NCBI RefSeq assembly: GCF_044324785.1
Contig: NZ_CP172127.1
Source of the DNA: Escherichia coli
GTDB taxonomy: Bacteria; Pseudomonadota; Gammaproteobacteria; Enterobacterales; Enterobacteriaceae
DNA: 64,000 nt
Reading direction: 5' to 3' (one strand)
Under the pieces are notes generated by a model, which was not told the DNA's origin, ran no database searches, and saw only the letters and a list, made by a program, of their open reading frames with translations. This document shows positions 43,119-64,000 of the stretch, piece after piece (position 1 is the first letter of the stretch; each line of letters starts with the position of its first letter). Both the position numbers and the translations under genes were made by a program.

Positions 43119-43180
43119 GTGAGCAGTAACTTAAAAATAACAATCTAATATCAACTTGTTAAAAAACAAGGAAGGCTAAT

Positions 43181-44482: not shown

Positions 44483-44490
44483 TGACCAAT

Positions 44491-44517
44491 CGCGGGGCGT
44501 TCACGCCCCGCTTTCTT
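44491..44517 (+). terminator. dcuA rho-independent terminator
   Basis: Hairpin cgcggggcgttcacgccccgc followed by tttcttt. Confidence 0.55.
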
Positions 44518-44597
44518 TCCCGCCGACTAACATCCTTCCCCCGTCCGTTGTATAGTGACCTCTCTCTTGCGGTTCCATCTGTTCTTGCGAGGTGTTT

Positions 44598-46609: not shown

Positions 46610-46645
46610 ACGACACTTGCAGTGGGAAAGACGGAGGAAAATAGC

Positions 46646-47221: not shown

Positions 47222-47327
47222 CAGAAACACAGAAAAGAAGCGATTTGCCGCAATCTTAAGCAGTTGAATCGCTTTTACTGAAATTAGGTTGACGAGATGT
47301 GCATATTACGGTTTAATGCGCCCCGTT

Positions 47328-47403
47328 GCCCGGATAGCTCAGTCGGTAGAGCAGGGGATTGAAAATCCCCGTGTCCTTGGTTCGATTCCGAGTCCGGGCA
47401 CCA
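47328..47403 (+). tRNA. pheU: tRNA-Phe (GAA)
   Basis: gcccggatagctcagtcggtagagcaggggattgaaaatccccgtgtccttggttcgattccgagtccgggcacca, 76 nt with GAA anticodon; promoter-like ttgacg/tttaat upstream. Confidence 0.92.
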
Positions 47404-47579
47404 CTTTCACTTCCAGATTCATCTCCCGAACTCCACGAAACTCAAGTATAATCACATCGTTACAAGCAATCTGAACATCCTGAACTCCACCGAACTCTAC
47501 TGAACTCTCTCTCAATCAAGCGTTCATTGGGGGCACCGGTGGGGGCTCATTGTGTTCAGTCAGTTTCAGGAGCCCCCAT

Positions 47580-48764
47580 ATGGCACTTACAGCCAGACAG
47601 GTCGAAACAGCCAGACCTAAAGAAAAAGACTATAAACTCTCTGACGAACGTGGTTTATATCTGCTGGTAAAAACCACGGGTGCCCGCTACTGGCGGCTTA
47701 AATACCGGATAGCAGGAAAAGAGAAAAAACTGGCCCTCGGCGTCTATCCCGACGTCTCCCTTGCTGAAGCCAGAATCAAACGCGACGATGCCCGAAAAAT
47801 TATCTCCGAAGGTGGCGACCCGGGCGAAAAGAAGCGAAAGGAAAAACTCACTCAGAAAATCTCTGCCACCAATACGTTCCATGCCCTTGCTACGGAATGG
47901 CATCAGCATAAATCTTTGTCATGGTCTGAAAGTTACGCCAGAAGCGTACTGGAGGCTCTGGATAAAGATATTTTCCCGTATCTGGGCAAACGAAGCGTTA
48001 CTGATATCCTCCCGCTGGAAATGCTGGAAATTCTGCGCCGCATAGAAAAACGTGGCTCGCTGGAAAAACTTCGTAAGGTGCGTCAATACTGTAATCAGAT
48101 TTTTCGTTATGCCATCGCCACCGGACGAGCCACTGTCAATCCGGCATCTGAACTGACCAGTACGCTGGCGGCGCCAAAAGCTGCACATTTCCCCCACCTG
48201 AGAGCAGATGAGCTCCCTGTTTTTCTCCGGAAGCTCGCTGAATATCATGGCAGTCCTGTTACCCGCATGGCGACAAATCTGCTGCTTCTGACAGGCCTCA
48301 GAACGATTGAACTACGGTCCGCTGAATGGTCAGAAATTGATTTTGATAATGCCCTGTGGACAATCCCTGAAAGCCGCATGAAAATGCGACGTAAACATGT
48401 CGTACCACTGTCACGACAGGCCACTGACATTCTGCTGCAGCTCAAAACTTTCTCCGGACAATACCGGCTGGTTTTCCCGGGACGTTGTGATATCAACAAG
48501 CCAATGAGCGAAGCCAGCATCAATATGGTGCTCAAACGTATCGGTTACGATGGCAGGGCAACCGGTCATGGTTTTCGTCACACCATGAGTACCATTCTGC
48601 ACGAACAGGGCTTTAATTCTGCCTGGATTGAAATGCAGTTAGCTCATGTGGATAAAAATTCCATCAGGGGTACCTATAATCATGCCCTGTATCTCGATGG
48701 TCGCCGTGAAATGATGCAATGGTACGCTGACTACATTGATTCACTTTCCATCCAGGAGAGTTAA
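47580..48764 (+). CDS. P4-type tyrosine integrase adjacent to tRNA-Phe
   Basis: Start MALTARQVETARPKEKDYKLSDERGLYLLV with SD caggag upstream; catalytic R...HxxR...Y residues (HGFRHT, RGTYNHALY); N-terminal arm-binding-type domain. Confidence 0.88.
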   Translation: MALTARQVETARPKEKDYKLSDERGLYLLVKTTGARYWRLKYRIAGKEKKLALGVYPDVSLAEARIKRDDARKIISEGGDPGEKKRKEKLTQKISATNTFHALATEWHQHKSLSWSESYARSVLEALDKDIFPYLGKRSVTDILPLEMLEILRRIEKRGSLEKLRKVRQYCNQIFRYAIATGRATVNPASELTSTLAAPKAAHFPHLRADELPVFLRKLAEYHGSPVTRMATNLLLLTGLRTIELRSAEWSEIDFDNALWTIPESRMKMRRKHVVPLSRQATDILLQLKTFSGQYRLVFPGRCDINKPMSEASINMVLKRIGYDGRATGHGFRHTMSTILHEQGFNSAWIEMQLAHVDKNSIRGTYNHALYLDGRREMMQWYADYIDSLSIQES

Positions 48765-48849
48765 TTACACTTTGTCCTGAAATTATTCTCACAATCAATA
48801 ACCTTTCCCTCTGATCTTACAGATCAGAGGGATTCCGTTAACTTACAAT

Positions 48850-48889
48850 AAGTGATATTGGTTGTCTGGAGATTTAGGGGGACGGTCTA
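48850..48889. repeat. Solo IS2 left-end-like terminal repeat upstream of rafR
   Basis: aagtgatattggttgtctggagatttagggggacggtcta is near-identical to the terminal repeat of the complete IS2 at 58363-58402, in the same orientation. Confidence 0.5.
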
Positions 48890-48913
48890 CTATAATAATT
48901 AGCAGGAGATAAT

Positions 48914-49924
48914 ATGTCACTTAAGGCGATTGCCACTGCACTCGGAGTTTCTGTCACCACTGTCAGTCGGGCTCTTGGAGGCTATGCAGATGTGTCAGCT
49001 TCCACCCGTGCACGGGTGGAAGCTGAAGCTCGTCGACGCGGTTACCGTCCTAATACTCAGGCAAGAAGACTCAAAACCGGTAAAACCGATGCTGTCGGTC
49101 TGGTTTATCCTGGACGTGATGTGCCATTTAACAGTGGTGTTTTTATGGATATGGTCAGTTGCATCAGCCGGGAACTTGCTCACCATGATATTGACTTACT
49201 ACTGATAGCTGATGATGAGCATGCCGATTGCCACAGCTATATGCGGCTTGTTGAAAGTCGCAGGGTTGATGCTCTCATCATTGCACACACTCTGGATGAC
49301 GATCCCCGTATCACACACCTTCATAAAGCAGGTATTCCATTTCTGGCTCTTGGTCGGGTACCATCTGGTCTGCCCTGTGCGTGGTTTGACTTTGATAATC
49401 ATGCCGGGACTGGACAGGCAACCCAGAAACTGATTGCTTTGGGACATAAACGTATTGCATTGTTGAGTGAAGACACTTCACATAGCTATGTTGTTGCAAG
49501 ACGTCAGGGATGGCTTGATGCACTGAATGAGCATGAACTGGAAGATACATGGCTGCGGCTGGTTTCTCCCACACGGCGAGCAGGATATCAGGCCGTGATG
49601 GAGTTAATGTCACTACCGATACCACCAACAGCTATTATTACTGACAATGACCTGAGTGGAGATGGTGCTGCCATGGCACTGCAGTTGAGCGGTCGTCTTT
49701 CAGGAAAAGATGCGGTATCTCTGGTTGTATATGATGGTTTGCCACAGGACAGTATTATTGAGCTGGATGTGGCTGCAGTTATTCAGTCAACACGAAGCCT
49801 CGTTGGTCGCCAGATTTCCGAGATGATATATCAGATAATTACTGATTCATCATCAAAACCACTACAGGTTGTCTGGAACCCGGTATTTTATCCGGGAAAG
49901 ACGATTCATCCTCCTTGCTCCTGA
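48914..49924 (+). CDS. rafR: LacI-family raffinose operon repressor RafR
   Basis: N-terminal HTH (MSLKAIATALGVSVTTVSRALGG) plus periplasmic-binding-protein-like sugar domain; 336 aa; precedes rafA. Confidence 0.8.
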   Translation: MSLKAIATALGVSVTTVSRALGGYADVSASTRARVEAEARRRGYRPNTQARRLKTGKTDAVGLVYPGRDVPFNSGVFMDMVSCISRELAHHDIDLLLIADDEHADCHSYMRLVESRRVDALIIAHTLDDDPRITHLHKAGIPFLALGRVPSGLPCAWFDFDNHAGTGQATQKLIALGHKRIALLSEDTSHSYVVARRQGWLDALNEHELEDTWLRLVSPTRRAGYQAVMELMSLPIPPTAIITDNDLSGDGAAMALQLSGRLSGKDAVSLVVYDGLPQDSIIELDVAAVIQSTRSLVGRQISEMIYQIITDSSSKPLQVVWNPVFYPGKTIHPPCS

Positions 49925-49945
49925 TTTTTTTATCCAGCTCACATA

Positions 49946-49981
49946 TCCGAAACGTTTTGGTTGATACCCGAAACGTTTCGG
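49946..49981 (+). promoter_or_regulatory. Putative RafR operator pair flanking the rafA -35 box
   Basis: Near-palindrome tccgaaacgttttgg, then ttgata (-35-like), then the perfect palindrome ccgaaacgtttcgg, all in the rafR-rafA intergenic region. Confidence 0.55.
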
Positions 49982-50019
49982 ATCAACAGTAAGGCATCCC
50001 TGAGAAAGGAGAATGTCTT

Positions 50020-52146
50020 ATGGTTTCAAAGTACTGCAGACTGAGCAGTCCTCGCTCTGATTTAATTATTAAAACCCGTCCACATGCAGAAATTATCTGG
50101 TGGGGCTCTGCACTGAAACATTTCTCACCGGATGACTGTGCCAGCCTGGAAAGACCGGTTGCGAATGGTCGTCTGGATATTGATACGCCACTAACACTGA
50201 TGGCTGAAAATGCCCTGGGACTTTTTAGCTCTCCGGGACTGGAAGGACACAGGAATGGGCTGGATGCATCTCCTGTTTTTTATACAGTTGACGTGGAACA
50301 TACCGAAAACACTCTGAGACTTACCAGTGAAGATTCGGTAGCCGGCCTGCGTCTGGTCAGCGAGCTGGTGATGACGCCATCAGGAATTCTGAAAGTTCGT
50401 CATGCACTGACCAACCTCAGAGAGGGGGACTGGCAGATAAATCGTTTCGCCATCACTTTACCTTTAGCGGAACGTGCGGAAGAAGTCATGGCTTTTCACG
50501 GACGCTGGACTCGTGAATTTCAGCCGCACAGGGTACGTCTCACTCATGATGCTTTTGTTCTGGAAAATCGCAGAGGGCGGACATCTCATGAGCATTTTCC
50601 GGCGCTGATTGTCGGCACGCCAGGCTTCTCGGAACAACAGGGAGAGGTGTGGGCTGTGCATCTGGGGTGGAGTGGAAATCACCGCATGAGATGTGAGGCA
50701 AAAACTGACGGCAGGCGTTACGTTCAGGCTGAGGCTCTGTGGATGCCGGGTGAGAAGGCTCTCAGGAAGAATGAAACCCTGTACACCCCGTGGCTATATG
50801 CCTGCCACTCTGCGGATGGCCTGAATGGAATGAGTCAGCAATACCATCGTTTTTTGCGTGATGAAATTATCCGTTTCCCTGAGCAAAAACCCCGCCCTGT
50901 ACATCTCAATACCTGGGAAGGTATTTATTTCAATCACAATCCTGATTACATCATGCAGATGGCTGAGCGTGCAGCAGCACTGGGCGTTGAACGTTTCATT
51001 ATTGATGATGGCTGGTTTAAAGGACGTAACGATGACCGCGCGGCTCTGGGCGACTGGTATACCGATGAACAGAAATACCCGAACGGGCTGATGCCGGTTA
51101 TTAAACATGTGAAATCTCTCGGTATGGAATTTGGCATATGGGTTGAGCCGGAAATGATTAACCCGGATTCTGACCTGTTTCGTCTTCATCCTGACTGGGT
51201 ATTGTCAATGCCTGGATATTCCCAGCCAACCGGAAGATATCAGTATGTTCTTAACCTGAATATTCCAGAGGCCTTTGCTTACATTTATGAACGTTTCTTA
51301 TGGTTACTGGGAGAACATCCGGTTGATTATGTGAAATGGGACATGAATCGTGAGCTTGTACAGGCAGGGCATGAAGGCCGTGCGGCAGCAGATGCACAGA
51401 CCCGTCAGTTCTATCGATTGCTTGATCTCCTCCGTGAACGTTTTCCACATGTTGAGTTTGAGTCCTGTGCTTCCGGTGGGGGGCGTATTGACTTCGAAGT
51501 CCTGAAACGCACACACCGGTTCTGGGCATCTGACAATAATGATGCCCTGGAGCGCTGCACCATACAACGTGGCATGAGTTACTTTTTCCCTCCTGAGGTG
51601 ATGGGGGCGCATATTGGCCATCGCCGCTGCCATGCAACTTTCCGGCAGCACAGCATCGCTTTTCGTGGGCTGACGGCATTGTTCGGCCATATGGGGCTGG
51701 AGCTGGATCCGGTGGCCGCAGATGCGAAGGAATCTGACGGTTATCGCCGGTATGCCTTGCTCTATAAAGAATGGCGACAACTGATTCATACAGGAGTTCT
51801 CTGGCGTGTGGATATGCCAGATCCTTCGATACAGGTTCAGGGAGTCGTCAGCCCTGATCAGTCTCAGGCACTTTTTATGATCAGCCAGCTTGCAATGCCG
51901 GATTACACCTTACCAGGCATACTTCGTTTTCCCGGTCTGGCGGCGGAAGTGCGTTACCGGCTTCGGGTTATTGATCACCCGGACCTCCAGGTGGTTGGTG
52001 AAGGCGGTCATACCATGCGCAAATTACCTGTCTGGATGAATCAGAGCCTTGAGGCCAGTGGTGAATGGCTGGCACAGGGAGGGATTCAGCTCCCCGTACT
52101 GGATCCGGAGAGTGCGATTTTGATAGCACTTGAAAGAGCTGTGTGA
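50020..52146 (+). CDS. rafA: Alpha-galactosidase (GH36) RafA
   Basis: 708-aa ORF with GH36 architecture; SD aaaggag upstream; first gene of the rafABD cluster. Confidence 0.85.
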   Translation: MVSKYCRLSSPRSDLIIKTRPHAEIIWWGSALKHFSPDDCASLERPVANGRLDIDTPLTLMAENALGLFSSPGLEGHRNGLDASPVFYTVDVEHTENTLRLTSEDSVAGLRLVSELVMTPSGILKVRHALTNLREGDWQINRFAITLPLAERAEEVMAFHGRWTREFQPHRVRLTHDAFVLENRRGRTSHEHFPALIVGTPGFSEQQGEVWAVHLGWSGNHRMRCEAKTDGRRYVQAEALWMPGEKALRKNETLYTPWLYACHSADGLNGMSQQYHRFLRDEIIRFPEQKPRPVHLNTWEGIYFNHNPDYIMQMAERAAALGVERFIIDDGWFKGRNDDRAALGDWYTDEQKYPNGLMPVIKHVKSLGMEFGIWVEPEMINPDSDLFRLHPDWVLSMPGYSQPTGRYQYVLNLNIPEAFAYIYERFLWLLGEHPVDYVKWDMNRELVQAGHEGRAAADAQTRQFYRLLDLLRERFPHVEFESCASGGGRIDFEVLKRTHRFWASDNNDALERCTIQRGMSYFFPPEVMGAHIGHRRCHATFRQHSIAFRGLTALFGHMGLELDPVAADAKESDGYRRYALLYKEWRQLIHTGVLWRVDMPDPSIQVQGVVSPDQSQALFMISQLAMPDYTLPGILRFPGLAAEVRYRLRVIDHPDLQVVGEGGHTMRKLPVWMNQSLEASGEWLAQGGIQLPVLDPESAILIALERAV

Positions 52147-52208
52147 AGAGAGGTACGGAGCCTCAGCTCCGTCCTGTTTCTCAATATTATCCCGTGAGGG
52201 TAAGAATA

Positions 52209-53486
52209 ATGAATTCTGCAAGTACGCATAAAAATCCCGATTTCTGGATTTTCGGTCTGTTCTTCTTTCTCTACTTTTTCATCATGGCAACCTGTTTTCC
52301 GTTTTTGCCTGTATGGCTGTCCGATGTGGTCGGACTGAGTAAAACGGATACAGGTATAGTCTTTTCATGTCTTTCTCTGTTTGCCATCAGTTTCCAGCCA
52401 TTGCTTGGGGTCATATCAGATCGCCTGGGACTGAAAAAAAACCTGATCTGGAGTATCAGCCTGTTACTTGTATTTTTCGCCCCCTTTTTTTTATATGTAT
52501 TTGCGCCCCTGCTGCGCTTCAATATCTGGGCAGGCGCACTGACTGGCGGTGTCTTTATTGGTTTTGTGTTTTCTGCAGGTGCCGGAGCTATTGAAGCTTA
52601 TATAGAGCGGGTCAGTCGCAGTCGTGGATTTGAATACGGTAAAGCGAGGATGTTCGGGTGTCTGGGCTGGGCGTTATGTGCGGCTATGGCTGGAATGCTT
52701 TTTAATGTCGATCCTTCTCTGGTTTTCTGGATGGGGTCAGTAAGCGCATTATTGTTGCTTCTTCTGTTGTTTCTGGCGCGCCCCAGTACCAGCCAGACGG
52801 CAATGGTTATGAATACACTGGGTGCCAATTCTTCCCTGATTTCGACCAGAATGGTCTTCAGCCTGTTTCGCATGCGTCAGATGTGGATGTTTGTTCTCTA
52901 CACGATTGGTGTGGCCTGTGTCTATGATGTATTTGATCAGCAGTTTGCCACATTTTTTCGTTCATTCTTTGACACTCCTCAGGCAGGAATAAAAGCATTC
53001 GGATTTGCTACCACTGCGGGGGAGATTTGTAATGCCATTATCATGTTCTGTACACCATGGATAATTCATCGCATTGGTGCCAAAAATACCCTGCTTGTTG
53101 CGGGGGGAATTATGACCATCCGCATTACCGGTTCTGCTTTTGCCACCACCGCGACAGAAGTGGTGATTCTGAAAATGCTTCACGCTCTTGAAGTTCCATT
53201 TTTGCTGGTTGGGGCGTTCAAATATATTACGGCAGTGTTTGACACCCGACTGTCAGCGACCGTTTATTTAATAGGTTTTCAGTTTTCCAAACAACTTGCT
53301 GCAATACTTCTCTCTACCTTTGCCGGCCACCTGTATGATCGTATGGGATTCCAGAATACGTATTTTGTGCTCGGGATGATTGCTCTGACTGTTACCGTGA
53401 TATCAGTTTTCACGCTGAGTTCTTCCCGCGGGAGCGTACACCCTTCTGTAGAAAAAGCCCCTGCAGCGCATTCGGAGATTAACTGA
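52209..53486 (+). CDS. rafB: Raffinose permease RafB (LacY-like MFS symporter)
   Basis: Start inferred at MNSASTHKNPDFWIFGLFFFLYFFIMATCFPFLPVWL (LacY-like N-terminus), about 425 aa with 12 TM segments. Confidence 0.85.
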   Translation: MNSASTHKNPDFWIFGLFFFLYFFIMATCFPFLPVWLSDVVGLSKTDTGIVFSCLSLFAISFQPLLGVISDRLGLKKNLIWSISLLLVFFAPFFLYVFAPLLRFNIWAGALTGGVFIGFVFSAGAGAIEAYIERVSRSRGFEYGKARMFGCLGWALCAAMAGMLFNVDPSLVFWMGSVSALLLLLLLFLARPSTSQTAMVMNTLGANSSLISTRMVFSLFRMRQMWMFVLYTIGVACVYDVFDQQFATFFRSFFDTPQAGIKAFGFATTAGEICNAIIMFCTPWIIHRIGAKNTLLVAGGIMTIRITGSAFATTATEVVILKMLHALEVPFLLVGAFKYITAVFDTRLSATVYLIGFQFSKQLAAILLSTFAGHLYDRMGFQNTYFVLGMIALTVTVISVFTLSSSRGSVHPSVEKAPAAHSEIN

Positions 53487-54916
53487 TGAAACAGCGTCTT
53501 GCTTTGGCACAGTCTGCCCTTGAAAAACTTTGCGCACGTCGTGGTAATGCCTGGTACCCGATTTTTCATCTGGCTCCACCTGCCGGCTGGATGAATGATC
53601 CAAATGGCCTTATTTACTTCAATGGGCGTTACCATGCGTTCTTCCAGCATCATCCTGCAAGCGCATATCAGGGGCCAATGCACTGGGGGCATGCCACCAG
53701 TACCGACATGTTGCACTGGCAACACGAACCTGTCGCGCTGGCACCCGGAGATAAATATGATCGTGATGGCTGTTTTTCAGGGAGTGCCGTGGATGATGAT
53801 GGCGTGCTATCACTTATTTATACTGGTCATATTTGTCTCGATGATCGTGGTAATGACAGCATTATCCGTGAAGTACAGTGTCTGGCTACAAGTCATGATG
53901 GTATTCACTTTGAGAAGCAGGGCTGTGTGCTGACACCTCCGGAAGGTATAATGCATTTCCGTGATCCCAAAGTCTGGCACGAAGACGGCTCCTGGTGGAT
54001 GGTCATTGGTGCCCGGGACGCTTCTGACAATGGGCAAGTTCTGTTGTATCGCGGGACATCTTTGCGGGACTGGCATCTGGAGCATGTTCTTGCTCATTCC
54101 GCAGCCGGAAAAAGTTATATGTGGGAATGCCCCGATTTCTTCAGGTGTGGTAATTTTCACTGGCTGATGTTCTCACCACAGGGGATGCCCCCTTCCGGTT
54201 ATCGGTTCCGTAACCTTTTTCAGAGCGGTGTGTTGGCAGGGAGCTGGAAGCCTGGTTCTGTCTTTGCGCTGAAAGGGGGATTTGAAGAGCTGGATTATGG
54301 TCATGACTTTTATGCTCCACAGTCCATGCTGGCTGAGGACGGCAGGCGTATCATTATGGCATGGATGAATATGTGGGATTCACCCGTGCCCACCCGCAGT
54401 GAAGCCTGGGCAGGATGTCTGACGCTGCCCAGAGAGGTTTTTGAGCGCGATGGCCGGCTGTGCCAGCGACCTGTGCGTGAAGTCGAATCTCTGCGCAAAA
54501 AATGCCAGCCATTATCCCCTGTAAGGTTACAGGGTTTGCAATTACTGACCGAAAATGTACAGGCCGCAGAATTATTGGTGACGTGGCATACGGTTGACAG
54601 TCATGCGGAGCACTATGGCGTCCGCCTTGGAGACGGTCTGCGACTTTATGTGGATAATCAGGCCGGGCGACTGGTACTGTGGCGCTATTACCCTGAGGAA
54701 GGGTTGGATGGTTACCGCAGTGTTGAACTTCCTGATACAGAATATCTGACTCTTCGTATTTTCTTGGATCGTTCATCTGTTGAAGTGTTTGTTAACGATG
54801 GTGAGGCAACCTTATCAAGTCGTATTTATCCGCAAGCGGACTCGAGACAATTATCGTTATATGCCGCTCATGGCGATGCGATATTAACTGATGGCACTTT
54901 ATGGATGCTGACCTGA
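53486..54916 (+). CDS. rafD: Sucrose-6-phosphate hydrolase/invertase (GH32) RafD
   Basis: GH32 signature WMNDPNG plus the RDP and EC motifs; start overlaps the rafB stop (TGATG). Confidence 0.85.
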   Translation: MKQRLALAQSALEKLCARRGNAWYPIFHLAPPAGWMNDPNGLIYFNGRYHAFFQHHPASAYQGPMHWGHATSTDMLHWQHEPVALAPGDKYDRDGCFSGSAVDDDGVLSLIYTGHICLDDRGNDSIIREVQCLATSHDGIHFEKQGCVLTPPEGIMHFRDPKVWHEDGSWWMVIGARDASDNGQVLLYRGTSLRDWHLEHVLAHSAAGKSYMWECPDFFRCGNFHWLMFSPQGMPPSGYRFRNLFQSGVLAGSWKPGSVFALKGGFEELDYGHDFYAPQSMLAEDGRRIIMAWMNMWDSPVPTRSEAWAGCLTLPREVFERDGRLCQRPVREVESLRKKCQPLSPVRLQGLQLLTENVQAAELLVTWHTVDSHAEHYGVRLGDGLRLYVDNQAGRLVLWRYYPEEGLDGYRSVELPDTEYLTLRIFLDRSSVEVFVNDGEATLSSRIYPQADSRQLSLYAAHGDAILTDGTLWMLT

Positions 54917-55110
54917 GACATATCGATATCAGTATTTTTTCTGACATTATCTGTCATTACTTTGCCAGTACACATTAATTATCTTTGCTGTGTGCTTTTG
55001 GTAATGTGTTGCGATTATATATACCAGTCTGGTGAAGAATATGAATGGTATTTTGTGTTGATACAGAGAATATAAGAGTACCCACATTTGTTTTTATTTA
55101 AGGGGGTAAA

Positions 55111-56505
55111 ATGAATAAGTTACTTTTGGGTTTATCTCTTTTTTTATTACTGGAATACAATGCGTGTGCAGCAAAAACAGGGGGGCTAACGCTTGAACAA
55201 AGAATGGCATTGCTGGAAGAACGCCTGGAAGCTGCAGAAAAAAGGGCGGAAAAAGCAGAAAGAATGTTAAAGAGTTTTGATATAGAACAACATTCTGAAA
55301 TACGTCAAATTAGTTCAGAGCAGAATAAAAAAGATGCTAACAGCTATGCAGTAGTTGAGTCAACAAAAGAAAAAACATCTTCTCCAGGTTTTCTGCTCTC
55401 TGGTTACAATGATTTGAAGTTTTATGGTGATGTGGAGTTTAATATAGATGCTGCCAGTAAACCCGGTCAGTTAGTAATGATAAGTTCCGGGGCGAACAGT
55501 GAGTCAGTGAATGAACGGTGGGACCTTAATGGCCGTATTCTATTAGGTTTTGACGGTACCCGTAAGCTTGATAATGGTTATTTCGCTGGATTTTCAGCAC
55601 AACCACTGGCGGATATGCACGGTTCAGTGAATATTGATGATGCATTATTCTTTTTTGGAAAAGATGACGAGTGGAAAGTGAAAGTCGGTCGTTTTGAAGC
55701 TTACGATATGTTCCCTCTAAATCAGGATACTTTCATTGAGTATTCCGGTAATACAGCTAATGATATTTATGCTGATGGCCGTGGTTATATCTATATGATG
55801 AAAGAGGGACGCGGTCGTTCTGACGCTGGTGGTAATTTCCTCATCAGTAAACAACTCGATAACTGGTATTTTGAGTTAAACACGTTACTTGAAGACGGAA
55901 CATCTTTATATAATAACGGTAATTATCATGGACGATATATGGAGCAGCAGAAAAATGTCGCTTATCTGCGCCCGGTAATTGCCTGGTCGCCAACGGAAGA
56001 ATTCACAGTCTCCGCAGCGATGGAAGCGAACGTGGTAAAAAATGCTTATGGCTATACCGATAATAAGGGGAATTTTGTCGATCAGTCCAATCGTTCCGGT
56101 TATGGTATTAGCATGACATGGAACGGTCTGAAAACAGATCCGGAAAATGGCATCGTGGTTACTCTTAATACCGCCTATTTGGATGCCAGTAATGAGAAAG
56201 ATTTCACTGCCAGTATTAATGCTCTGTGGAAACGTTTCGAACTGGGTTATATCTACGCACATAATAAGATTGATGAATTTAGTGGTGTCGTGTGTAATAA
56301 TGGTTGCTGGATTGATGGTGAAGGAATATACAACATTCACACCATTCATGCATCTTATCAGTTTGCTAATGTGATGGATATGGAGAACTTTAATATTTAC
56401 CTCGGGGCTTATTACTCAATTCTGGATAGTAACTGTAGATATAGTAATTGTGACATTACCGATGATCGTTACGGTGCCCGATTACGTTTCAAATACTTTT
56501 TTTGA
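55111..56505 (+). CDS. rafY: Raffinose glycoporin RafY
   Basis: 464-aa protein with signal peptide, N-terminal coiled-coil (LEERLEAAEKRAEKAERMLK) and beta-rich body ending in an aromatic residue (RFKYFF), typical of outer-membrane porins. Confidence 0.8.
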   Translation: MNKLLLGLSLFLLLEYNACAAKTGGLTLEQRMALLEERLEAAEKRAEKAERMLKSFDIEQHSEIRQISSEQNKKDANSYAVVESTKEKTSSPGFLLSGYNDLKFYGDVEFNIDAASKPGQLVMISSGANSESVNERWDLNGRILLGFDGTRKLDNGYFAGFSAQPLADMHGSVNIDDALFFFGKDDEWKVKVGRFEAYDMFPLNQDTFIEYSGNTANDIYADGRGYIYMMKEGRGRSDAGGNFLISKQLDNWYFELNTLLEDGTSLYNNGNYHGRYMEQQKNVAYLRPVIAWSPTEEFTVSAAMEANVVKNAYGYTDNKGNFVDQSNRSGYGISMTWNGLKTDPENGIVVTLNTAYLDASNEKDFTASINALWKRFELGYIYAHNKIDEFSGVVCNNGCWIDGEGIYNIHTIHASYQFANVMDMENFNIYLGAYYSILDSNCRYSNCDITDDRYGARLRFKYFF

Positions 56506-57005
56506 TGCATAGTAACAAAGTATTGTTCCACACTTACATTAACGCGTTTTTCGGGCGCGTCATCAGCGATGCATACGAATGATCGCAGTCTGCCAATGGT
56601 CGATTTATCTTGGTTGCGCAGGGGCGAGCACCGGGCAGGTACCGGCGGCTGACTCTGAAGCTCTGAGTCGGGTAATTGCGTCAGGTCACGAAGGACTGAC
56701 ACGGGTATTGGTGGCAGGTGATGAAGTACTGAGTGTGGTAATTTCGGGGATGCAATGCAGGAGCTGAGTCAGGTTTGCACTGAGCTGAGGACCCGTAGCG
56801 AGCGGGTTCCTGCTATTTTTCGGTGTCAGGGGCGCAAGTCCCGACGTCGGGACTTGCCGGGAGATTGTCAGGTCATTGACCGGGTGTGAGCGGCTCGACG
56901 TAAGCGGTAGATATGCCCAATTCCCCCCGATAAATTCATTACCAAACACATTATTCAATTTGTTTTTATTTTTCCGCTTTCAGTCATTATCGCTATCGCT
57001 TCGTC

Positions 57006-57071
57006 GGTAATGACTCCAACTTATTGATAGTGTTTTATGTTCAGATAATGCCCGATGACTTTGTCATGCAG
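57006..57071. mobile_element. IS1 terminal fragment (66 bp), truncated by the IS2 insertion
   Basis: ggtaatgactccaacttattgatagtgttttatgttcagataatgcccgatgactttgtcatgcag is identical to the first 66 bp of the complete IS1 at 59354; it abuts the IS2 end directly. Confidence 0.8.
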
Positions 57072-57082
57072 TGGATTTGCCC

Positions 57083-57988
57083 CTATATTTCCAGACACCT
57101 GTTATCACTTAACCCATTACTGGTCCGCTGCCGCAGATATTCCCGTGGCGAGCGATAACCCAGCGCACTATGCGGATGCCATTCGTTATAATGCTCGAAC
57201 GCCTCTGCAAGGTTCTTTGCTGCCGTTAACCCGTCTGGTTTGGGCATGATACTGATGTAGTCACGCTTTATCGTTTTCACGAAGCTCTCTGCTATTCCGT
57301 TACTCTCCGGACTCCGCACCGCCGTGTTCTTCGGTTCAAGTCCCAACATCCGGGCGAACTGGCGTGTTTCATTAGCCCGGTAGCATGAACCATTATCCGT
57401 CAGCCACTCCACTGGAGACGACGGAAGATCGTTGCCGAAGCGGCGTTCCACCGCTCCTGGCATGACGTCCTGTACTGTTTCACTGTTGAAGCCGCCGGTA
57501 GTGACCGCCCAGTGCAGTGCCTCACGATCACAGCAGTCCAGCGCGAACGTGACACGCAGTCTCTCTCCGTTATCACAGCAGAACTCGAACCCGTCAGAGC
57601 ACCATCGCTGATTGCTTTCTTTCACGGCCACTCTGCCAGTATGTGCCCGTTTCGATGGCGGTACAGCGGTTTTTCGCTCAAGCAACAGCGCATTCTGGCG
57701 CATGATCCGGTAAACACGTTTGGCATTGATCGCAGGCATACCATCAAGTTCGGCCTGTCTGCGAAGCAGCGCCCATACCCGACGATAACCATACGTGGGC
57801 AGCTCTCCGATAACATGGTGTATACGGAGAAGCACATCCGTATCATCTGAGTGACGGCTGCGGCGACCATCTTTCCAGTCATCGGTTCGTCTGAGAATTA
57901 CGTGCAACTGCGCACGCGACACCCGGAGACAACGGCTGACTAAGCTTACTCCCCATCCCCGGGCAATAAGGGCGCGTGCGCTATCCAC
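57083..57988 (-). CDS. insD: IS2 transposase OrfB (InsD)
   Basis: 301-aa DDE transposase [30 protein letters not shown]. Confidence 0.92.
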
Positions 57989-58311
57989 TTTTTTGCACGC
58001 CCGTATTCAACGGCTTCTTTAAGGAGTTCATTTTCCATCGTTTTTTTGCCGAGCAGGCGCTGGAGTTCTTTAATCTGCTTCATGGCAGCAGCAAGTTCAG
58101 AGGCAGGAACGACCTGCTCTCCTGCGGCCACAGCAGTAAGACTTCCCTCCTGGTATTGCTTGCGCCAGAGAAATAACTGGCTGGCTGCCACACCGTGTTG
58201 CCGGGCAACAAGGGAGACCGTCATTCCCGGTTCAAAACTCTGCTGAACAATAGCGATCTTTTCCTGTGTAGTACGCCGTCTGCGTTTCTCCGGTCCTAAG
58301 ACATCAATCAT
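57946..58311 (-). CDS. insC: IS2 OrfA (InsC)
   Basis: Start [43 protein letters not shown] protein; 3' end overlaps insD in the programmed frameshift arrangement. Confidence 0.9.
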
Positions 58312-58562
58312 CTGCTCTCCAATGACTAGTCTAAAAACTAGTATTAAGACTATCACTTATTTAAGTGATATTGGTTGTCTGGAGATTCATGGGGCCAGTC
58401 TAGCAGATTATGGTGCGCAGTTATACAACAGCAGTAATGAGGAGTCTACTATTTCTCTTGTTATGCCAGATGCAATTGAATGGAACGGAAAGAATACGCC
58501 AAGACGGCAATACATGATAAAATATATTGCCGTATTTAAATATTAAAATTTATTTTTGTAGA

Positions 58563-58952
58563 TCATCTGAATTTTCGGTGACCTTCAAGTTTTATATCGT
58601 TCATTTTATCCAGAGACTCACGTAATGATTCTATATTCCCGTCCTCAACTTTCTTTTTTGCAATATTGATTTCATGTTGTAGTTTTTTTAACTCTTCCTT
58701 ATAACTATCTACAGAAACTTTATCATTAACATCTATCTTTTCAGGAATAATATTCATAGAAGAATCTACAGATTTATCCATCATTTCAAGAGCATTTAAT
58801 AGTGATGATTTATCATTGGAAGATTGTAGAATACTCATACTTTTGGCAAGAGACTGCATGTTTTTATCCAGGCCGGAAGCCAAAGATACGTTGCTGAGAG
58901 ATAAAAAAATAGCTAGTACAGCACCTGAGAAAAATACCTTTTGTTTTTTCAT
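58563..58952 (-). CDS. Secreted cytochrome b562-like four-helix-bundle protein (divergent CybC homolog)
   Basis: Start MKKQKVFFSGAVLAIFLSLSNVSLA (signal peptide); mature region aligns with cytochrome b562 including the Met heme ligand (SGLDKNM vs ADLEDNM) and C-terminal His (LEGHRKFR vs NAYHQKYR). Confidence 0.6.
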   Translation of the reverse strand: MKKQKVFFSGAVLAIFLSLSNVSLASGLDKNMQSLAKSMSILQSSNDKSSLLNALEMMDKSVDSSMNIIPEKIDVNDKVSVDSYKEELKKLQHEINIAKKKVEDGNIESLRESLDKMNDIKLEGHRKFR

Positions 58953-59368
58953 TAATATATTCCTGTTCAAAGTTGATTATAGTTATGTCAATTTAAGTTT
59001 ATTATTATGATTTTTTATTTTTGTACTATGAATCTCCTGTATGCTTATATGTGCAGAAAATCTCATTTTATCAAGAAGAATATCAAATTTTCTCCGATAC
59101 TTCTACATACTCCATCATTCATGCTCCTTTTATCCGTGCACCGTAAAACCCCGTCCTTCAGCGGGGGATATAAGGCGCTGTTTTCCACCTAACCAGGTGT
59201 CTGCTGCTATTCAATGTATTGGCGGATGACGGATGCCGCCCGTTGAAGCAGGACCCCTCGTCCTTAGGGCGTGGAGGATGTCAAAATGAAAACTTGTGGT
59301 ATGAATCAATCCATTCATCATCCTTTCGGATCATTGCATTCAGTATAACGCTGGGTAATGACTCCAAC

Positions 59369-59872
59369 TTATTGATAGTGTTTTATGTTCAGATAATGCC
59401 CGATGACTTTGTCATGCAGCTCCACCGATTTTGAGAACGACAGCGACTTCCGTCCCAGCCGTGCCAGGTGCTGCCTCAGATTCAGGTTATGCCGCTCAAT
59501 TCGCTGCGTATATCGCTTGCTGATTACGTGCAGCTTTCCCTTCAGGCGGGATTCATACAGCGGCCAGCCATCCGTCATCCATATCACCACGTCAAAGGGT
59601 GACAGCAGGCTCATAAGACGCCCCAGCGTCGCCATAGTGCGTTCACCGAATACGTGCGCAACAACCGTCTTCCGGAGACTGTCATACGCGTAAAACAGCC
59701 AGCGCTGGCGCGATTTAGCCCCGACATAGCCCCACTGTTCGTCCATTTCCGCGCAGACGATGACGTCACTGCCCGGCTGTATGCGCGAGGTTACCGACTG
59801 CGGCCTGAGTTTTTTAAGTGACGTAAAATCGTGTTGAGGCCAACGCCCATAATGCGTGCACTGGCACGACAT
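59369..59872 (-). CDS. insB: IS1 InsB
   Basis: 167 aa, [37 protein letters not shown]. Confidence 0.92.
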
Positions 59873-60066
59873 CCGACGCCATTCATGGCCATATCAATGA
59901 TTTTCTGGTGCGTACCGGGTTGAGAGGCGGTGTAAGTGAACTGTAGTTGCCATGTTTTACGGCAATGAGAGCAGAGATAGCGCTGATGTCCGGCAGTGCT
60001 TTTGCCGTTACGCACCACGCCTTCAGGAGCGGAGCAGGAAGGACATCTGATGGAAATGGAAGCCAC
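59791..60066 (-). CDS. insA: IS1 InsA
   Basis: 91 aa, [40 protein letters not shown]. Confidence 0.92.
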
Positions 60067-60329
60067 GCAAGCACCTTAAAATCACCATCATACACTAAAT
60101 CAGTAAGTTGGCACCATTACCTGACCAAGCTTCCTCTATTGCGGCACCTGATTGCATCAATATCGAAAGTGATAAGATCCTCTCACTAGCAGGGCATGAC
60201 AAGTGTAACTGCTGATTTGTTAGCCTGTTTTAAGTTTTTTAAGATCAATTATTTCTCATTTTTTGACTTTATTGCTAGCCGTGAAAATGCAAAGCCTATA
60301 GGATACAAAAATTACAATTTGTAGGTTTT

Positions 60330-60836
60330 GTGAGTCATATGAAGGCAACCAATATAGACCCTCAACTGCTTGAAAAAGCCACGAGTATCTTTGCTGAGTT
60401 GGGCTTACCTATTGAGCAGGCTATTAACGTCTTTTTAGCTAAATCCGTTCAAGCCAAAGGTTTTCCGTTTTCTGTTGCTCTTGAAAATGAAGTAGAGACA
60501 CGGGAAGTTGCACAAACGCAACACAATATCAGCAATGCAGAGATAACCGAAGCTATCCAAGACTTGGTTGAACATGCTCTACCACTGAGTGAAATAGAAA
60601 ACCTCACGCAGCTAACCTATTGTCGCAACATTTTTGGGTTGTCATTCCCCGTGCTCAAACTGGCTAAATCATCACGGCCAGAAGACATTCGCAGTGCAGC
60701 CAAAGATGCCAAAGAGCGAAACCGCTACTCCACCACTAAAGTGGCCCAGCGAGATGAAAAAACCTATGTTATTTGCACCCAATGGACCGACAGACATCGT
60801 TCTGCATTTTGCCGTTGGCAAGCCATCTTTAGCTAG
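60330..60836 (+). CDS. RelB/DinJ-like ribbon-helix-helix protein with an uncharacterised C-terminal extension
   Basis: N-terminal 50 aa (KATNIDPQLLEKATSIFAELGLPIEQAINVFLAKSVQAKGFPFSV) follow the DinJ pattern; the remaining 110 aa or so are unassigned; alternative ATG start at 60339; AT-rich; no toxin gene adjacent. Confidence 0.5.
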   Translation: MSHMKATNIDPQLLEKATSIFAELGLPIEQAINVFLAKSVQAKGFPFSVALENEVETREVAQTQHNISNAEITEAIQDLVEHALPLSEIENLTQLTYCRNIFGLSFPVLKLAKSSRPEDIRSAAKDAKERNRYSTTKVAQRDEKTYVICTQWTDRHRSAFCRWQAIFS

Positions 60837-60902
60837 AACGCAAAATAATAACCAAACAATACACTGATTTTTTAACGATTTAACTTCATTTAGGTAGTAT
60901 CA

Positions 60903-62882
60903 ATGAACTTACAAGACAAAGAACAAAGCGCCAAACTCTCCAGTGCTATTTGGCGTATGGCAGATGATTTATGGGGTGATTTCAAACACACCGATTTTGC
61001 GCGGATTATCCTGCCATTTTTGCTACTGCGTCGTATTGAATGCGTGTTAGAACCCACCCGTGAGGAAGTTCGTAAGTTCTATCTGGCCGAAAAACAATCC
61101 GGCATAGACCTTGGTTTAGTGTTGCCAGAAATTGCGGGATTCGCCTTTTACAACACCAGTGAATATAGCCTAGAAACCTTAGGCGCGTCAGACACCGGCG
61201 ACAACCTAGAACACTACATCAGCCAGTTCAGCAAAAACGTTCGTACCATCTTTGATGAGTTTAAATTTGGTCAAACCATAGAAGATCTGGAAAAAGCCAA
61301 GTTGCTGTATCGCATGGTAAACCATTTTGCCAACCTCGACTTGCATCCTGATGTAGTGTCTGACCGCGTATTATCAGATGCTTATGAAGAGCTGATTCTA
61401 AAGTTCGCCAGTTCGGTTAATGAAAAGGCCGGGGAATTTATGACCCCGCGTGATGCCGTGCGTCTTGCCACCAAACTGGTGCTGGCGGCGGATGAAGATA
61501 TCTTTAGTGAAAAGGGTGTGATCCGCACCATCTATGACCCAACCTGTGGCACGGGCGGTTTCCTTTCCGATGCCATTAGCCAAATTGAAGAAATGGGCAG
61601 CAGCGCTAAAGTCGTGCCTTTTGGTCAAGAGCTCGACCCCGCGACCCATGCCATGGCGCTGACCAATATGATGATCCGCGGTTTTGATGCCAATAACATC
61701 AAGCAAGGCAACACCTTATCAGACGATCAGTTACGTGCCGACAAGTTTCACTACGGCCTTGCCAACCCGCCATTTGGCATTAAGTGGGAAAAAGCCAAGA
61801 AAGAAGTAGAACGTGAGCACAAACAGCTCAAATACGCCGGACGCTTTGGGCCAGGCCTGCCGAGTATTTCTGATGGTTCAATGCTGTTTTTACTGCACTT
61901 GGTATCAAAAATGGAAACGCCGGAAAATGGTGGTGGCCGAGTGGGTATAGTCCTTTCTGGCTCGCCACTGTTTAATGGCGATGCAGGCTCAGGCCCATCA
62001 GAAATCCGCCGTTGGCTGCTAGAACAAGACTTAGTCGAAGCGATTGTTGCCCTGCCAACCGATATGTTCTTCAACACCGGCATTGGCACCTACATCTGGA
62101 TTTTGACTAACCATAAAGAGCCAAGACGCAAGAATCAGGTGCAACTGATTAACTTGGCAGATATTTGGACTCCCATGCGTAAATCGCAAGGCGATAAGCG
62201 CAAGTACCTGAGTGATGAACAGATTGACGATATTGTCCGTGCGTACGATGGCTTTGAAGCCAGTGACAACTGTAAGATCTTCCAGACTACTGATTTTGCC
62301 TACCGTAAAGTCACCATTCAGCGTCCACTGCGTGCCAAACTAGATATTACCGCTGCGGGCATTGCTGCATTTGTGCAGCAAGATACGTTTAAAAAACTCA
62401 AACCAGAGCAACAAGCGGCATGGGTACAATACCTCACCGATAACCTTGGCCTTCAGCCTTATGAATGGGCACGTTTGGCGGTTAAGAAGAATAACAATAA
62501 GGGTGACTTTGGTAAGTGCTCAAAAGCACTGGCTACGGCCTTAACTGCGCACTTTGTAAAAATTGATCCGCAATTTGAGCCTGCACTGGATGAAAAAGGC
62601 CAAGTGATCGCCGACCCTAAACTCAAAGACACCGAAAGCATTCCTTTTGACCGCGACGTTGAAGATTACTTCGCACAAGAGGTGCTGCCACATGTACCGG
62701 ATGCCTTTATTGATCACTCAGTGCGTGATGAAAAAGACGGCGAAGTGGGCATTGTCGGTTATGAAATTAACTTTAACCGCTATTTCTACCAATACGTGCC
62801 ACCACGCGAGTTGAGTGTGATTGATCGTGAGCTAAAAGCATGTGAAGCGCGCATTCAGGCTCTGCTGAATGAGGTGGCGTAA
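60903..62882 (+). CDS. hsdM: Type I restriction-modification N6-adenine DNA methyltransferase subunit HsdM
   Basis: 659 aa with AdoMet motif YDPTCGTGGFL and catalytic NPPFG; stop overlaps the hsdS start (TAATG). Confidence 0.88.
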   Translation: MNLQDKEQSAKLSSAIWRMADDLWGDFKHTDFARIILPFLLLRRIECVLEPTREEVRKFYLAEKQSGIDLGLVLPEIAGFAFYNTSEYSLETLGASDTGDNLEHYISQFSKNVRTIFDEFKFGQTIEDLEKAKLLYRMVNHFANLDLHPDVVSDRVLSDAYEELILKFASSVNEKAGEFMTPRDAVRLATKLVLAADEDIFSEKGVIRTIYDPTCGTGGFLSDAISQIEEMGSSAKVVPFGQELDPATHAMALTNMMIRGFDANNIKQGNTLSDDQLRADKFHYGLANPPFGIKWEKAKKEVEREHKQLKYAGRFGPGLPSISDGSMLFLLHLVSKMETPENGGGRVGIVLSGSPLFNGDAGSGPSEIRRWLLEQDLVEAIVALPTDMFFNTGIGTYIWILTNHKEPRRKNQVQLINLADIWTPMRKSQGDKRKYLSDEQIDDIVRAYDGFEASDNCKIFQTTDFAYRKVTIQRPLRAKLDITAAGIAAFVQQDTFKKLKPEQQAAWVQYLTDNLGLQPYEWARLAVKKNNNKGDFGKCSKALATALTAHFVKIDPQFEPALDEKGQVIADPKLKDTESIPFDRDVEDYFAQEVLPHVPDAFIDHSVRDEKDGEVGIVGYEINFNRYFYQYVPPRELSVIDRELKACEARIQALLNEVA

Positions 62883-64000
62883 TGAATGCTGGCAACATAG
62901 TAGATGCTTTCGTATCTGACTCGAAATGGAACTCAGTACCAGCTAAACGTTTATTTACGAGTAGCAAAGAAATCAATCAAGGAATGAAAGAATCTAATCG
63001 TCTTGCACTAACAATGAAAGGTGTCATAAACCGCTCGTTAGACGATTTACAAGGACTTCAATCTTCTGATTACTCTGTTTATCAGATTTTTGAAAAAGAT
63101 GACTTAGTTTTTAAGCTCATAGATCTTGAAAATATAAAGACTAGCCGAGTGGGGATTGTGCATGAACGAGGAATAATGAGCCCTGCATACATCCGTGTTT
63201 CAGCGAGTTCAAATAGCATCTACCCAAGGTTCTATTACTGGTACTTTTTTGCTCTATACCTAACCAATATTTATAACAAACTGGGTGGAGGAGTTCGTCA
63301 GAACCTAACAGCTGGTGATCTTTTAGAAATACCTGTTCCACTGATTGATATTTCATTACAGAAGCAGGTTAGCACATTCCTTGATCGCGAAACCCAGCGC
63401 ATCGACAGTCTGATCGAGGAAAAGCAGACCTTTATTAAGCTGCTCAAAGAAAAACGCCAAGCACTGATCAGCCATGTGGTCACAAAGGGGCTCTATCCCA
63501 ATGTGGAGATGCAGGACTCTGGCATCGAGTGGATTGGGCAAGTGCCGAAGCATTGGGAAGTCAAAAAGATAAAGCATATTTGCTCCAACTTTATGTATGG
63601 AACCTCTCAAGACTGTAACCAGTCTGATGTTGGCTATCCTGTTCTCAGGATACCAAACATCAAGAGTACCAATGTTGATTTTGAAGATCTCAAATATGCA
63701 AATATCAGTGATGTTGATGCTTTAACTTATCTTTTATCAAGAGGCGACATTTTAGTCATCAGAACTAACGGTAACCCTAATCTGGTCGGCCAAAGCGCGC
63801 TTTTTGATTCAAATGGGCAGTATTTATTTGCGTCGTACCTAATAAAGTTAACACCAAAGCAAGGAGTGGATACTAGCTTCTTAGTGGAAGCGATGAACTC
63901 ACTATCTGTTCGTCAAGCATTAACATTTCAGTCAAGAACATCGGTAGGTAACTACAACCTGAGCATTCCTTCACTAGCTAATACAAGTATTGCTATCCCA
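62882..64000 (+). CDS. hsdS: Type I restriction-modification specificity subunit HsdS, 5' partial (runs off the window end)
   Basis: Open frame from ATG 62882 to the window end (373 codons, manual translation); first variable target-recognition domain, conserved central segment FLDRETQRIDSLIEEKQTFIKLLKEKRQALISHVVTKGL, then a second variable domain. Confidence 0.8.
   Translation, partial: MNAGNIVDAFVSDSKWNSVPAKRLFTSSKEINQGMKESNRLALTMKGVINRSLDDLQGLQSSDYSVYQIFEKDDLVFKLIDLENIKTSRVGIVHERGIMSPAYIRVSASSNSIYPRFYYWYFFALYLTNIYNKLGGGVRQNLTAGDLLEIPVPLIDISLQKQVSTFLDRETQRIDSLIEEKQTFIKLLKEKRQALISHVVTKGLYPNVEMQDSGIEWIGQVPKHWEVKKIKHICSNFMYGTSQDCNQSDVGYPVLRIPNIKSTNVDFEDLKYANISDVDALTYLLSRGDILVIRTNGNPNLVGQSALFDSNGQYLFASYLIKLTPKQGVDTSFLVEAMNSLSVRQALTFQSRTSVGNYNLSIPSLANTSIAIP

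Follow-up and report, generated by a model that had tools for sequence, protein, structure and literature searches.

What occupies the DNA to the right of the tRNA-Phe gene in this Escherichia coli chromosome, and how was it put together? These questions are raised by the right-hand part of the window, as we call the whole stretch of 64,000 nucleotides that was analyzed (contig NZ_CP172127.1). The original prediction was of a mosaic island anchored at tRNA-Phe, and this view is borne out by a break in synteny, an integrase, modules that differ in their counts among genomes, and empty sites in other strains. The tRNA-Phe (GAA) gene, located at 47328–47403 on the plus strand (ARAGORN; Rfam, 68 bits), is the integration target, and since annotation places dsbD and dicD/yjdC to its left, the site is pheU. 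We compared a junction query (46700–48800) with 5,426 complete E. coli genomes and found that in nearly all of them the match stopped at query base 704 or 710, which corresponds to window position 47403 or 47409. Thus, as predicted, backbone synteny ends exactly at the 3′ end of the tRNA gene. The match ran on into the window's integrase at pheU in only 196 genomes, and the dicD-pheU-cadC site was empty in 3,699; the comparison with empty sites that had been proposed therefore shows that the same content is far from common to all E. coli.

A joint alignment of attL and attR with the annotated empty pheU site (attB) of BL21 defined the limits of the insertion. The attL core is a 19-nt sequence (ATTCCGAGTCCGGGCACCA; 47385–47403) formed by the 3′ end of the tRNA gene. 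The search for a downstream direct repeat, which had been suggested as a check, identified an exact 19-nt copy in the closest complete relative, 23CRST007 (record position 2733714–2733732), directly before the cadC backbone; when the comparison is extended, 22/24 bases agree. The island of this relative measures ~113 kb from tRNA-Phe to attR. The genome collection did not include the window's own genome, and its best match to window 30000–50000 was 99.2%. The 3′ end of the tRNA gene does not recur within the window, even with up to three mismatches allowed, consistent with the expectation that the right-hand repeat lies outside it. The right boundary and total size assumed for the window's island are those of 23CRST007. 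We hold with high confidence that 47404–64000 (16.6 kb) belongs to a large mosaic island at pheU (GI-pheU) and represents the end nearest its integrase. The island was inserted by site-specific recombination, which would have joined an att site borne by the element to the tRNA-Phe gene at its 3′ end.

The P4-type integrase that had been expected right after the tRNA is indeed present. The gene starts 176 bp past the tRNA end (47403) and encodes an intact P4-family tyrosine integrase of 394 aa (47580–48764, plus strand) with the P4-type set of Pfam domains (Arm-DNA-bind_3, Phage_int_M, and Phage_integrase). A full-length alignment with P4 Int shows 42% identity (E = 1e-107), with the conserved C-terminal motifs GLRTIELR, GHGFRHT, LAHV, and GTYNH in register. 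Between the core and int (47426–47510, plus strand), we found repeats of GAACTC, one copy at 47428 and three at 47482, 47492, and 47502 with a spacing of 10 bp. They are placed like the annotated arm repeats of P4 attP and are thus putative arm-type binding sites of the integrase. No excisionase was found in the window, and the sole candidate in 23CRST007 is a sub-threshold excisionase-like HTH protein encoded far downstream. In the proposed mechanism, the integrase beside attL, taken as the sole recombination function of the stretch, would catalyze integration, and excision is predicted to occur between the 19-nt cores with a directionality factor. Integrase activity is presumed here, as is the order of the assembly events considered below.

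The first part of the cargo is a raffinose-utilization cluster with the gene order rafR-rafA-rafB-rafD-rafY (48914–56505), all genes lying on the plus strand. It follows the integrase, as had been proposed, and its protein families match. The first gene, rafR (48914–49924), encodes a LacI-family repressor (NCBIfam LacI-family matches; RefSeq annotation), and rafA (50020–52146) encodes an α-galactosidase of 708 aa, as indicated by RefSeq annotation and cluster names. The product of rafB (52209–53486) is an oligosaccharide/H+ permease of the MFS type with 425 aa (TIGR00882, 676 bits, above the cut-off). The 476-aa product of rafD (53486–54916) is a GH32 invertase (TIGR01322, 461 bits), one cluster member being named raffinose invertase. 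Upstream of rafA, a repeat search detected two 18-nt near-palindromic repeats, 21 nt apart (49943–49981), which we take, with the pRSD2 literature in mind, to be putative RafR operators. The last gene, rafY (55111–56505), encodes a carbohydrate porin of 464 aa, as supported by annotation, composition, and published work (PMC4809568). In that work, rafY lies downstream of rafRABD, and the order in the window agrees (PMC4809568).

The cluster is shared with plasmids. It is 98.9% identical at the nucleotide level to raf clusters on 163 plasmids, pIP1206 included, and raf was found in 459 of the 5,426 complete genomes, on both chromosomes and plasmids. We presume the plasmid raf operon to be of the pRSD2 type, and the identity value refers to the 163 other plasmids. 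The window's cluster has the gene order (rafRABD-rafY) and protein families of the plasmid operon; in contrast to it, it is chromosomal and lies directly behind an intact integrase. The raf copies on plasmids carry the 3′ 760 bp of the window's int, which is cut there by an IS2 located at the counterpart of window position 48005. Because they keep this part of int, int and raf act as one linked unit. A solo 41-nt copy of an IS2 end (48849–48889; 90% identical to 58362–58402) lies between int and rafR and is also present upstream of rafR on pIP1206. Homology to plasmids decays in the 500-bp spacer that follows rafY (56506–57005), where identity to pIP1206 falls to 74.6% over the last 193 aligned bases; a 90-aa ORF in this spacer gave no match in a PHROG search.

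To the right of the spacer, the sequence is joined at insertion sequences. A 66-nt stub of an IS1 end (57006–57071, minus strand), 100% identical to 59354–59419, is truncated by a complete IS2 of 1331 bp (57072–58402, minus strand; NCBIfam IS2 TnpA and TnpB, both above cut-offs). There follow a 951-bp AT-rich segment of plasmid type (58403–59353, minus strand; GC 0.35) and a complete IS1 of 768 bp (59354–60121, minus strand; NCBIfam IS1 transposase). Thus, the predicted nesting of IS elements holds for the stub cut by IS2 and not for the second IS1, which is separate. We found neither a clean 5-bp target duplication around IS2 (flanks TGCAG and GCAGA) nor a 9-bp duplication around IS1 (flanks ATAACGCTG and TGACCAAGC). 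The flanks of both complete elements are not matching pairs; the joints therefore probably reflect IS-mediated deletion or recombination of one IS copy with another rather than simple insertion. The AT-rich segment contains a cytochrome b562-like gene of 129 aa (58563–58952; NCBIfam cytochrome b562, 65.8 bits, below the cut-off of 130). This b562 piece is present in 138 of the 5,426 complete genomes and is mostly plasmid-borne elsewhere, with plasmids accounting for 248 of the 268 places where it was located in complete genomes. On plasmid pCys-1, it occurs in a matching arrangement beside an element of the IS3 family.

The presence of a restriction-modification module, the last part of the prediction on cargo, was likewise confirmed. 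Its hsdM (60903–62882, plus strand) encodes a type I methyltransferase of 659 aa (PADLOC MTase_I, 808 bits). The specificity gene hsdS (62882–64000, plus strand) runs off the window end; it was identified by annotation and by the full-length copy of a relative (PADLOC Specificity_I, 324 bits), the full length in relatives being 428 aa. The hsdR gene is located outside the window, in a 100%-identical relative (PADLOC, 103 bits), in which the set of hsdM, hsdS, and hsdR is thus complete. Upstream of hsdM lies a gene whose 165-aa product has a RelB-like ribbon-helix-helix domain at its N terminus (60339–60836, plus strand; Pfam RelB, E = 5e-5, residues 5–67). We found no toxin gene beside it, and PADLOC also gave no match. 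The protein is >90% identical in Vibrio, Providencia, Pectobacterium, and Shewanella and is possibly a regulator of the R-M operon.

The origin of this block was indicated by its left end, where 49 bp from the 3′ end of a serine-recombinase (resolvase) gene remain as a scar (60141–60189, plus strand). From this scar onward, across the RelB-like gene and hsdM and as far as hsdS (60141–64000), the window is 99.8% identical to the interior of an island that E. coli 1585m1 carries next to mnmE. The match begins at position 12001 of that island locus, inside the resolvase coding sequence (11426–12049). The mnmE (trmE) island of 1585m1 has the layout of the IncC-mobilizable type. Beyond hsdS, 23CRST007 and 1585m1 are 99.2% identical through hsdR and two KwaA/KwaB-like genes, and the identity goes down to 83% across RhuM and mobI. 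The latter gene, typical of the trmE islands of the MGIVchHai6 family (PMC7449626), appears shortened or split in the relatives. Islands of this family are mobilizable by IncC plasmids, and most carry type I R-M systems (PMC7449626). The "defense module" of the original prediction is a captured piece from the interior of an mnmE/trmE-type island. The block resembles the family in being the interior of an mnmE-adjacent island with type I R-M genes; unlike the family, it has no trmE-type int, xis, or att ends and is bounded on its left side by IS1. We rejected its assignment as a member of the MGIVchHai6-type trmE islands, as it lies in the pheU island behind IS1 and is an internal fragment only. 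The R-M block was found in 76 of the 5,426 complete genomes, always on the chromosome, and strain S30 has the same IS1/R-M junction in its leuX island.

Base composition fits the predicted picture only in part. The raf genes had been described as near backbone composition, which is true of the GC of rafA and rafD (0.51) and not of rafB (0.46) or the AT-rich rafY (0.395). GC3 is <0.50 in every island gene (0.25–0.49) and thus below the minimum of 24 backbone ORFs (0.511; mean, 0.579). The description of 58400–64000 as AT-rich did not hold: the region is mixed, with GC values ranging from 0.35 in the b562 piece through 0.40 in hsdS and 0.48 in hsdM to 0.53 in IS1.

Sequence comparison supports separate histories of the modules. 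Their distributions differ (196, 459, 138, and 76 genomes, as given above), and integrase, raf, b562 piece, and R-M block occur all together in only 12 of the 5,426 complete genomes. In our model, the cargo is a patchwork joined at insertion sequences. It begins with the raf cluster (rafR, the twin putative operators, rafABD, and rafY), tightly linked to int, and continues with the IS1 stub cut by IS2, the 951-bp piece otherwise found mostly on large plasmids, the complete IS1, and the R-M part (RelB-like gene, hsdM, hsdS, and beyond) of the internal fragment from an mnmE/trmE island of IncC-mobilizable layout. The mosaic would have been built in a previous host before it entered the present backbone as a single block.

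The island of 23CRST007 shows what the complete element may contain. Its cargo includes iha, the aerobactin genes iucABCD-iutA, and sitABCD, and it ends with a yeeU/cbtA-type module. It also holds pseudogenes of the TIGR03756 and TIGR03757 ICE proteins and of TraU; because its ICE genes are pseudogenized, it would not transfer itself by conjugation. These pseudogenes bring up an alternative in which a self-transmissible ICE came into pheU and decayed there, the catabolic and defense modules being later cargo, and pheU and pheV are indeed known ICE hotspots, as exemplified by ICEEc2 (PMC11537424). However, the window has no conjugation, relaxase, or type IV secretion genes, and the remnants lie ~40 kb off among IS wrecks and could be captured fragments themselves. 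We regard a decayed ICE as rather unlikely.

Another alternative concerns the place of assembly. The original prediction of stepwise assembly stands as far as the separate distributions of the modules go, and its timing can now be refined to before the latest transfer. If the modules had been added successively in the present genome, the rearrangements implied by IS junctions without target duplications would be explained, as would the differences among related islands to the right of IS2, where strain EC25, for example, carries ireA. Against this, a comparison of the window with 23CRST007 gave 110 mismatches over the 10.6 kb of backbone that end at 47304 (~1%) and only 2 over the 16.6 kb of island, so the mosaic probably arrived ready-made. 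The whole arrangement is, moreover, 99.7 to 100% identical in 11 other genomes; a twelfth matches 87% of the query at 99.4% identity. Strain 98232 has a collinear island, at least 70 kb long, at pheV, since the att sequence of this site is the same as that of pheU. The joints therefore predate the island's entry into the window's backbone, and assembly in situ is improbable. The weakest alternative, a prophage or P4-like satellite, has in its favor the P4-type integrase, to which the nearest phage integrases (Sf6 and phiAH14b) are 46 to 47% identical, but the 16.6 kb contain no capsid, replication, primase, or phage regulatory genes and PHROG searches of unassigned ORFs gave nothing informative, which makes this reading highly implausible.

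The preferred reading, a mosaic GI-pheU, has close parallels. SHI-3 of Shigella boydii is an aerobactin island at pheU with a P4-like integrase. The window's island shares with it the site and the type of integrase, and the 23CRST007 island also shares the aerobactin genes; to our knowledge, SHI-3 is much smaller and has no raf or R-M modules. The GI-pheV islands have been described as mosaics of modules bounded by IS elements, with intP4 as their sole conserved gene (PMC11537424). The window's island agrees with GI-pheV and GI-pheU in its insertion at the tRNA-Phe 3′ end, in intP4 directly beside the tRNA, and in modular cargo bounded by IS elements (PMC11537424); the attR of its closest relative, a partial repeat of the tRNA end, and this relative's terminal module and iha, iuc/iutA, and sitABCD cargo are further likenesses. 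In contrast, the set at its integrase end (raf, IS2, b562 piece, IS1, and type I R-M) is confined to the 12 genomes mentioned above, and we found no mention of galactosidase, sucrose, restriction, or IS2 in the text of PMC11537424.

Together, the pheU island is an ordinary instance of a well-known kind of mobile DNA and leaves known island biology unchanged. The region shows in clear form how islands of E. coli come to be built, with a sugar cluster shared with plasmids behind a tRNA-Phe integrase and, stitched on by IS elements, a plasmid fragment and a defense block from another class of island. We tentatively suggest, as a possibility somewhat short of an even chance, that the mosaic of >100 kb may still work as an integrase-driven unit that enters pheU or pheV as one piece, and that the raf operons of many large plasmids may derive from the part of the island next to its integrase, with IS2 capturing the segment from inside int and leaving the 760-bp int remnant. 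Since rafY is associated with chicken isolates (PMC12987596), the raf cluster may matter for gut colonization on soy-rich diets.

The island begins at a tRNA-Phe(GAA) gene (47328-47403), identified with ARAGORN and Rfam; Rfam gave no other match in the island. Because dsbD and dicD/yjdC are the left neighbors of this tRNA gene, the insertion site is pheU. When a query spanning the junction (46700-48800) was compared with 5,426 complete E. coli genomes, nearly all of them matched only to query base 704 or 710, corresponding to window positions 47403 and 47409, while only 196 of the 5,426 extend into the integrase gene 3' of pheU. Thus, the backbone ends at the last base of the tRNA, in agreement with the original prediction.

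That prediction had also placed the right-hand repeat of the tRNA 3' end outside the window, and we indeed detected no second copy inside it, even when 3 mismatches were allowed. DNA beyond position 64000 was read in 23CRST007 (NZ_AP045764.1), the closest complete relative. The exact 23-nt repeat of the tRNA end was not found downstream in this genome; a mismatch-tolerant search showed that a 19-nt core, ATTCCGAGTCCGGGCACCA, recurs ~113 kb downstream, and in an extended version of this core, 22 of 24 bases match. After the second core come a short remnant of an integrase gene and cadCBA, in this order. Taken from 23CRST007, this position would be the right end of the island in the window's own genome as well.

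The site is empty in BL21, where the order is dicD, pheU, remnant, and cadC. A three-way alignment demonstrated that the empty site corresponds to the left side of attL (the left island end) and the right side of attR (the right end), joined at the core. Because 3,699 of the 5,426 genomes have this empty site, the same gene content is not found here in all E. coli, which had been named as the observation that would argue against an island. The region is a genuine tRNA-Phe-anchored island.

The "empty" pheU site is not virgin, as it retains a short integrase pseudogene and a stretch, tctcccgaactc, similar to the DNA beside attL (region 733-1090 of locus L004 and 3705-4061 of locus L006). This suggests that an earlier element with an integrase of the same family once occupied the site and has since decayed. 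When the site is occupied, the native terminator hairpin of pheU remains at attR and thus lies ~113 kb from the tRNA.

Three domains, Arm-DNA-bind_3, Phage_int_M, and Phage_integrase, were detected in the integrase ORF (47580-48764, 394 aa). Over its full length, the protein shares 42% identity with the P4 integrase (E=1e-107), with the conserved C-terminal motifs aligned, and its nearest phage relatives are the integrases of Sf6 and phiAH14b (46-47% identity). Between the core and the int start codon, the motif GAACTC is repeated, with three copies spaced 10 bp apart; P4 has its arm repeats at the corresponding position, and those of the island are possible arm sites of the integrase. Reading the region as a prophage or satellite was rejected, as phage genes are absent.

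The raf cluster (48914-56505) encodes, in order, a LacI-family repressor, an α-galactosidase of 708 aa, an oligosaccharide MFS permease (676 bits), a GH32 invertase (461 bits), and a porin. This agrees with the rafR-rafABD-rafY order already described (PMC4809568; PMC12987596). The cluster was found in 459 of the 5,426 genomes, on both chromosomes and plasmids, and shares 98.9% identity with the copies carried by 163 plasmids. Two 18-nt near-palindromes upstream of rafA are consistent with the twin RafR operators known from work on pRSD2. A subset of E. coli chromosomes has an additional raf-like cluster, 79.5% identical and without the porin, and a lone rafY-like porin gene (86-87% identity) is present in many genomes.

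Plasmid raf clusters retain the 3' 760 bp of the island int, cut by IS2. On plasmid pIP1206 (locus L005, 2877-5090), the match begins at window position 48005, within int and abutting an IS2, with 97.9% identity over the int remnant and 99.1-99.5% over the raf genes. Thus, int and raf travel together, with a truncated int in the plasmid copies. Furthermore, the int-rafR interval contains a solo IS2 end of 41 nt in the plasmid and chromosomal copies alike. The plasmid int remnant and this common IS2 end suggest that the raf modules of plasmids and the tRNA-Phe island descend from one ancestral int-raf joint (48005-48889 in the window). A promoter-like site pointing into rafR (48867-48896; 10 of 12 positions matched) has its -35 within the solo IS2 end and its -10 immediately beyond it, although the promoter and terminator scan as a whole performed no better than chance.

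Downstream of rafY, homology to the plasmid raf regions decays within a 500-bp spacer (56506-57005, GC 0.52) that separates it from an IS1 stub; a 90-aa ORF in the spacer matched no family in PADLOC or PHROGs. The stub is a 66-nt IS1 end (57006-57071) cut by a complete IS2 of 1331 bp (57072-58402). The predicted nesting of IS elements holds only for IS2 within the IS1 stub (57006-58402), while the complete IS1 (59354-60121, 768 bp) is a separate element. Because matching target duplications are absent at both complete elements, their flanks were probably joined through either deletion or recombination between IS copies. The piece between them (58403-59353; GC 0.35) contains a cytochrome b562-like gene (129 aa), which scored 65.8 bits and so fell short of the NCBIfam cut-off of 130, and for which PADLOC and PHROGs returned nothing informative. 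Among the 268 places where this piece occurs in complete genomes, 248 are on plasmids. The arrangement on pCys-1 is the same, with an IS3-family element beside the piece, which there runs on into genes missing from the island.

Past IS1, the type I R-M block opens with the 3'-terminal 49 bp of a resolvase gene (from 60141), followed by the gene for a 165-aa protein whose N-terminal domain is RelB-like (60339-60836) in front of hsdM (808 bits, PADLOC), and by hsdS, which extends past the window end. The C-terminal 100 residues of the RelB-like protein have no family assignment, no toxin gene lies alongside, and PADLOC and PHROGs were uninformative. This protein accompanies the R-M block, and its identity exceeds 90% in Vibrio, Providencia, Pectobacterium, and Shewanella. 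In 23CRST007, the block extends into hsdR and a weak KwaA-like gene, which overlap at the stop of the former and the start of the latter; a weak KwaB-like gene, a RhuM-family gene, and mobI then follow (locus L001, 33169-39605). The mobI gene of this strain looks split, because its annotated length is 128 aa, compared to 194 aa in strain 1585m1, and an ORF of 66 aa precedes it.

The R-M block was present in 76 genomes and was chromosomal in all of them. Strain S30 has the block behind the same IS1, as part of a leuX island. In 1585m1, 60141-64000 is matched at 99.8% identity inside an island of ~20 kb that spans tnaC to mnmE (trmE), with its own integrase adjoining mnmE. This layout agrees with the IncC-mobilisable MGIVchHai6 family, most members of which carry type I R-M systems (PMC7449626). 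The block in the window is not a member of this family; it is a captured internal fragment of an mnmE/trmE-type island.

Base composition was less clear-cut than originally proposed. The raf genes had been described as near backbone composition (GC 0.521), which holds for the bulk GC of rafA and rafD (0.51) and roughly of rafR (0.485) but not for rafB (0.46) or rafY (0.395). The 58400-64000 segment turned out to be mixed rather than uniformly AT-rich: beside the b562 piece, hsdS is at 0.40, hsdM at 0.48, and IS1, like IS2, at 0.53. Third-position GC is below 0.50 in all island genes, as compared to a mean of 0.579 and a minimum of 0.511 in 24 backbone ORFs.

Relative to 23CRST007, positions 1-36.8k are only 96-98% identical, the segment from 36.8k (36775) to 47.3k contains 110 mismatches (6-18 per kb), and 47404-64000 contains 2 mismatches in 16.6 kb; the search with 47000-64000 gave a 100% match to this strain. 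With the last backbone mismatch at 47304, divergence drops within 100 bp of the tRNA from ~1% to nearly none. Such a step is what would result if the same element had recently entered two different backbones by site-specific insertion. The best match to 30000-50000 among complete genomes was 99.2%. In the backbone, three tandem tRNA-Gly(GCC) genes (18165-18463, minus strand; spacings 112 and 111 nt) form the ordinary gly tRNA cluster beside orn; the two spacings are in reversed order relative to 23CRST007.

All four modules (int at pheU, raf, the b562 piece, and the R-M block) occur together in only 12 of the 5,426 genomes. Strain 98232 carries the island at pheV, beside yqgA, with the first 17 kb 99.9% identical and gene order collinear over at least 70 kb, while the pheU island of EC25 has int, raf, and IS2 in common and then continues with ireA. 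Because of this distribution, the pheV copy, and the EC25 variant, the predicted stepwise assembly is retained with a refinement: the mosaic was probably built stepwise before its latest moves and reached the present backbone as a block. GI-pheV/pheU islands are IS-bounded modular mosaics in which a P4-type integrase is the sole constant (PMC11537424), and the island described here, of a kind already known, fits this picture.
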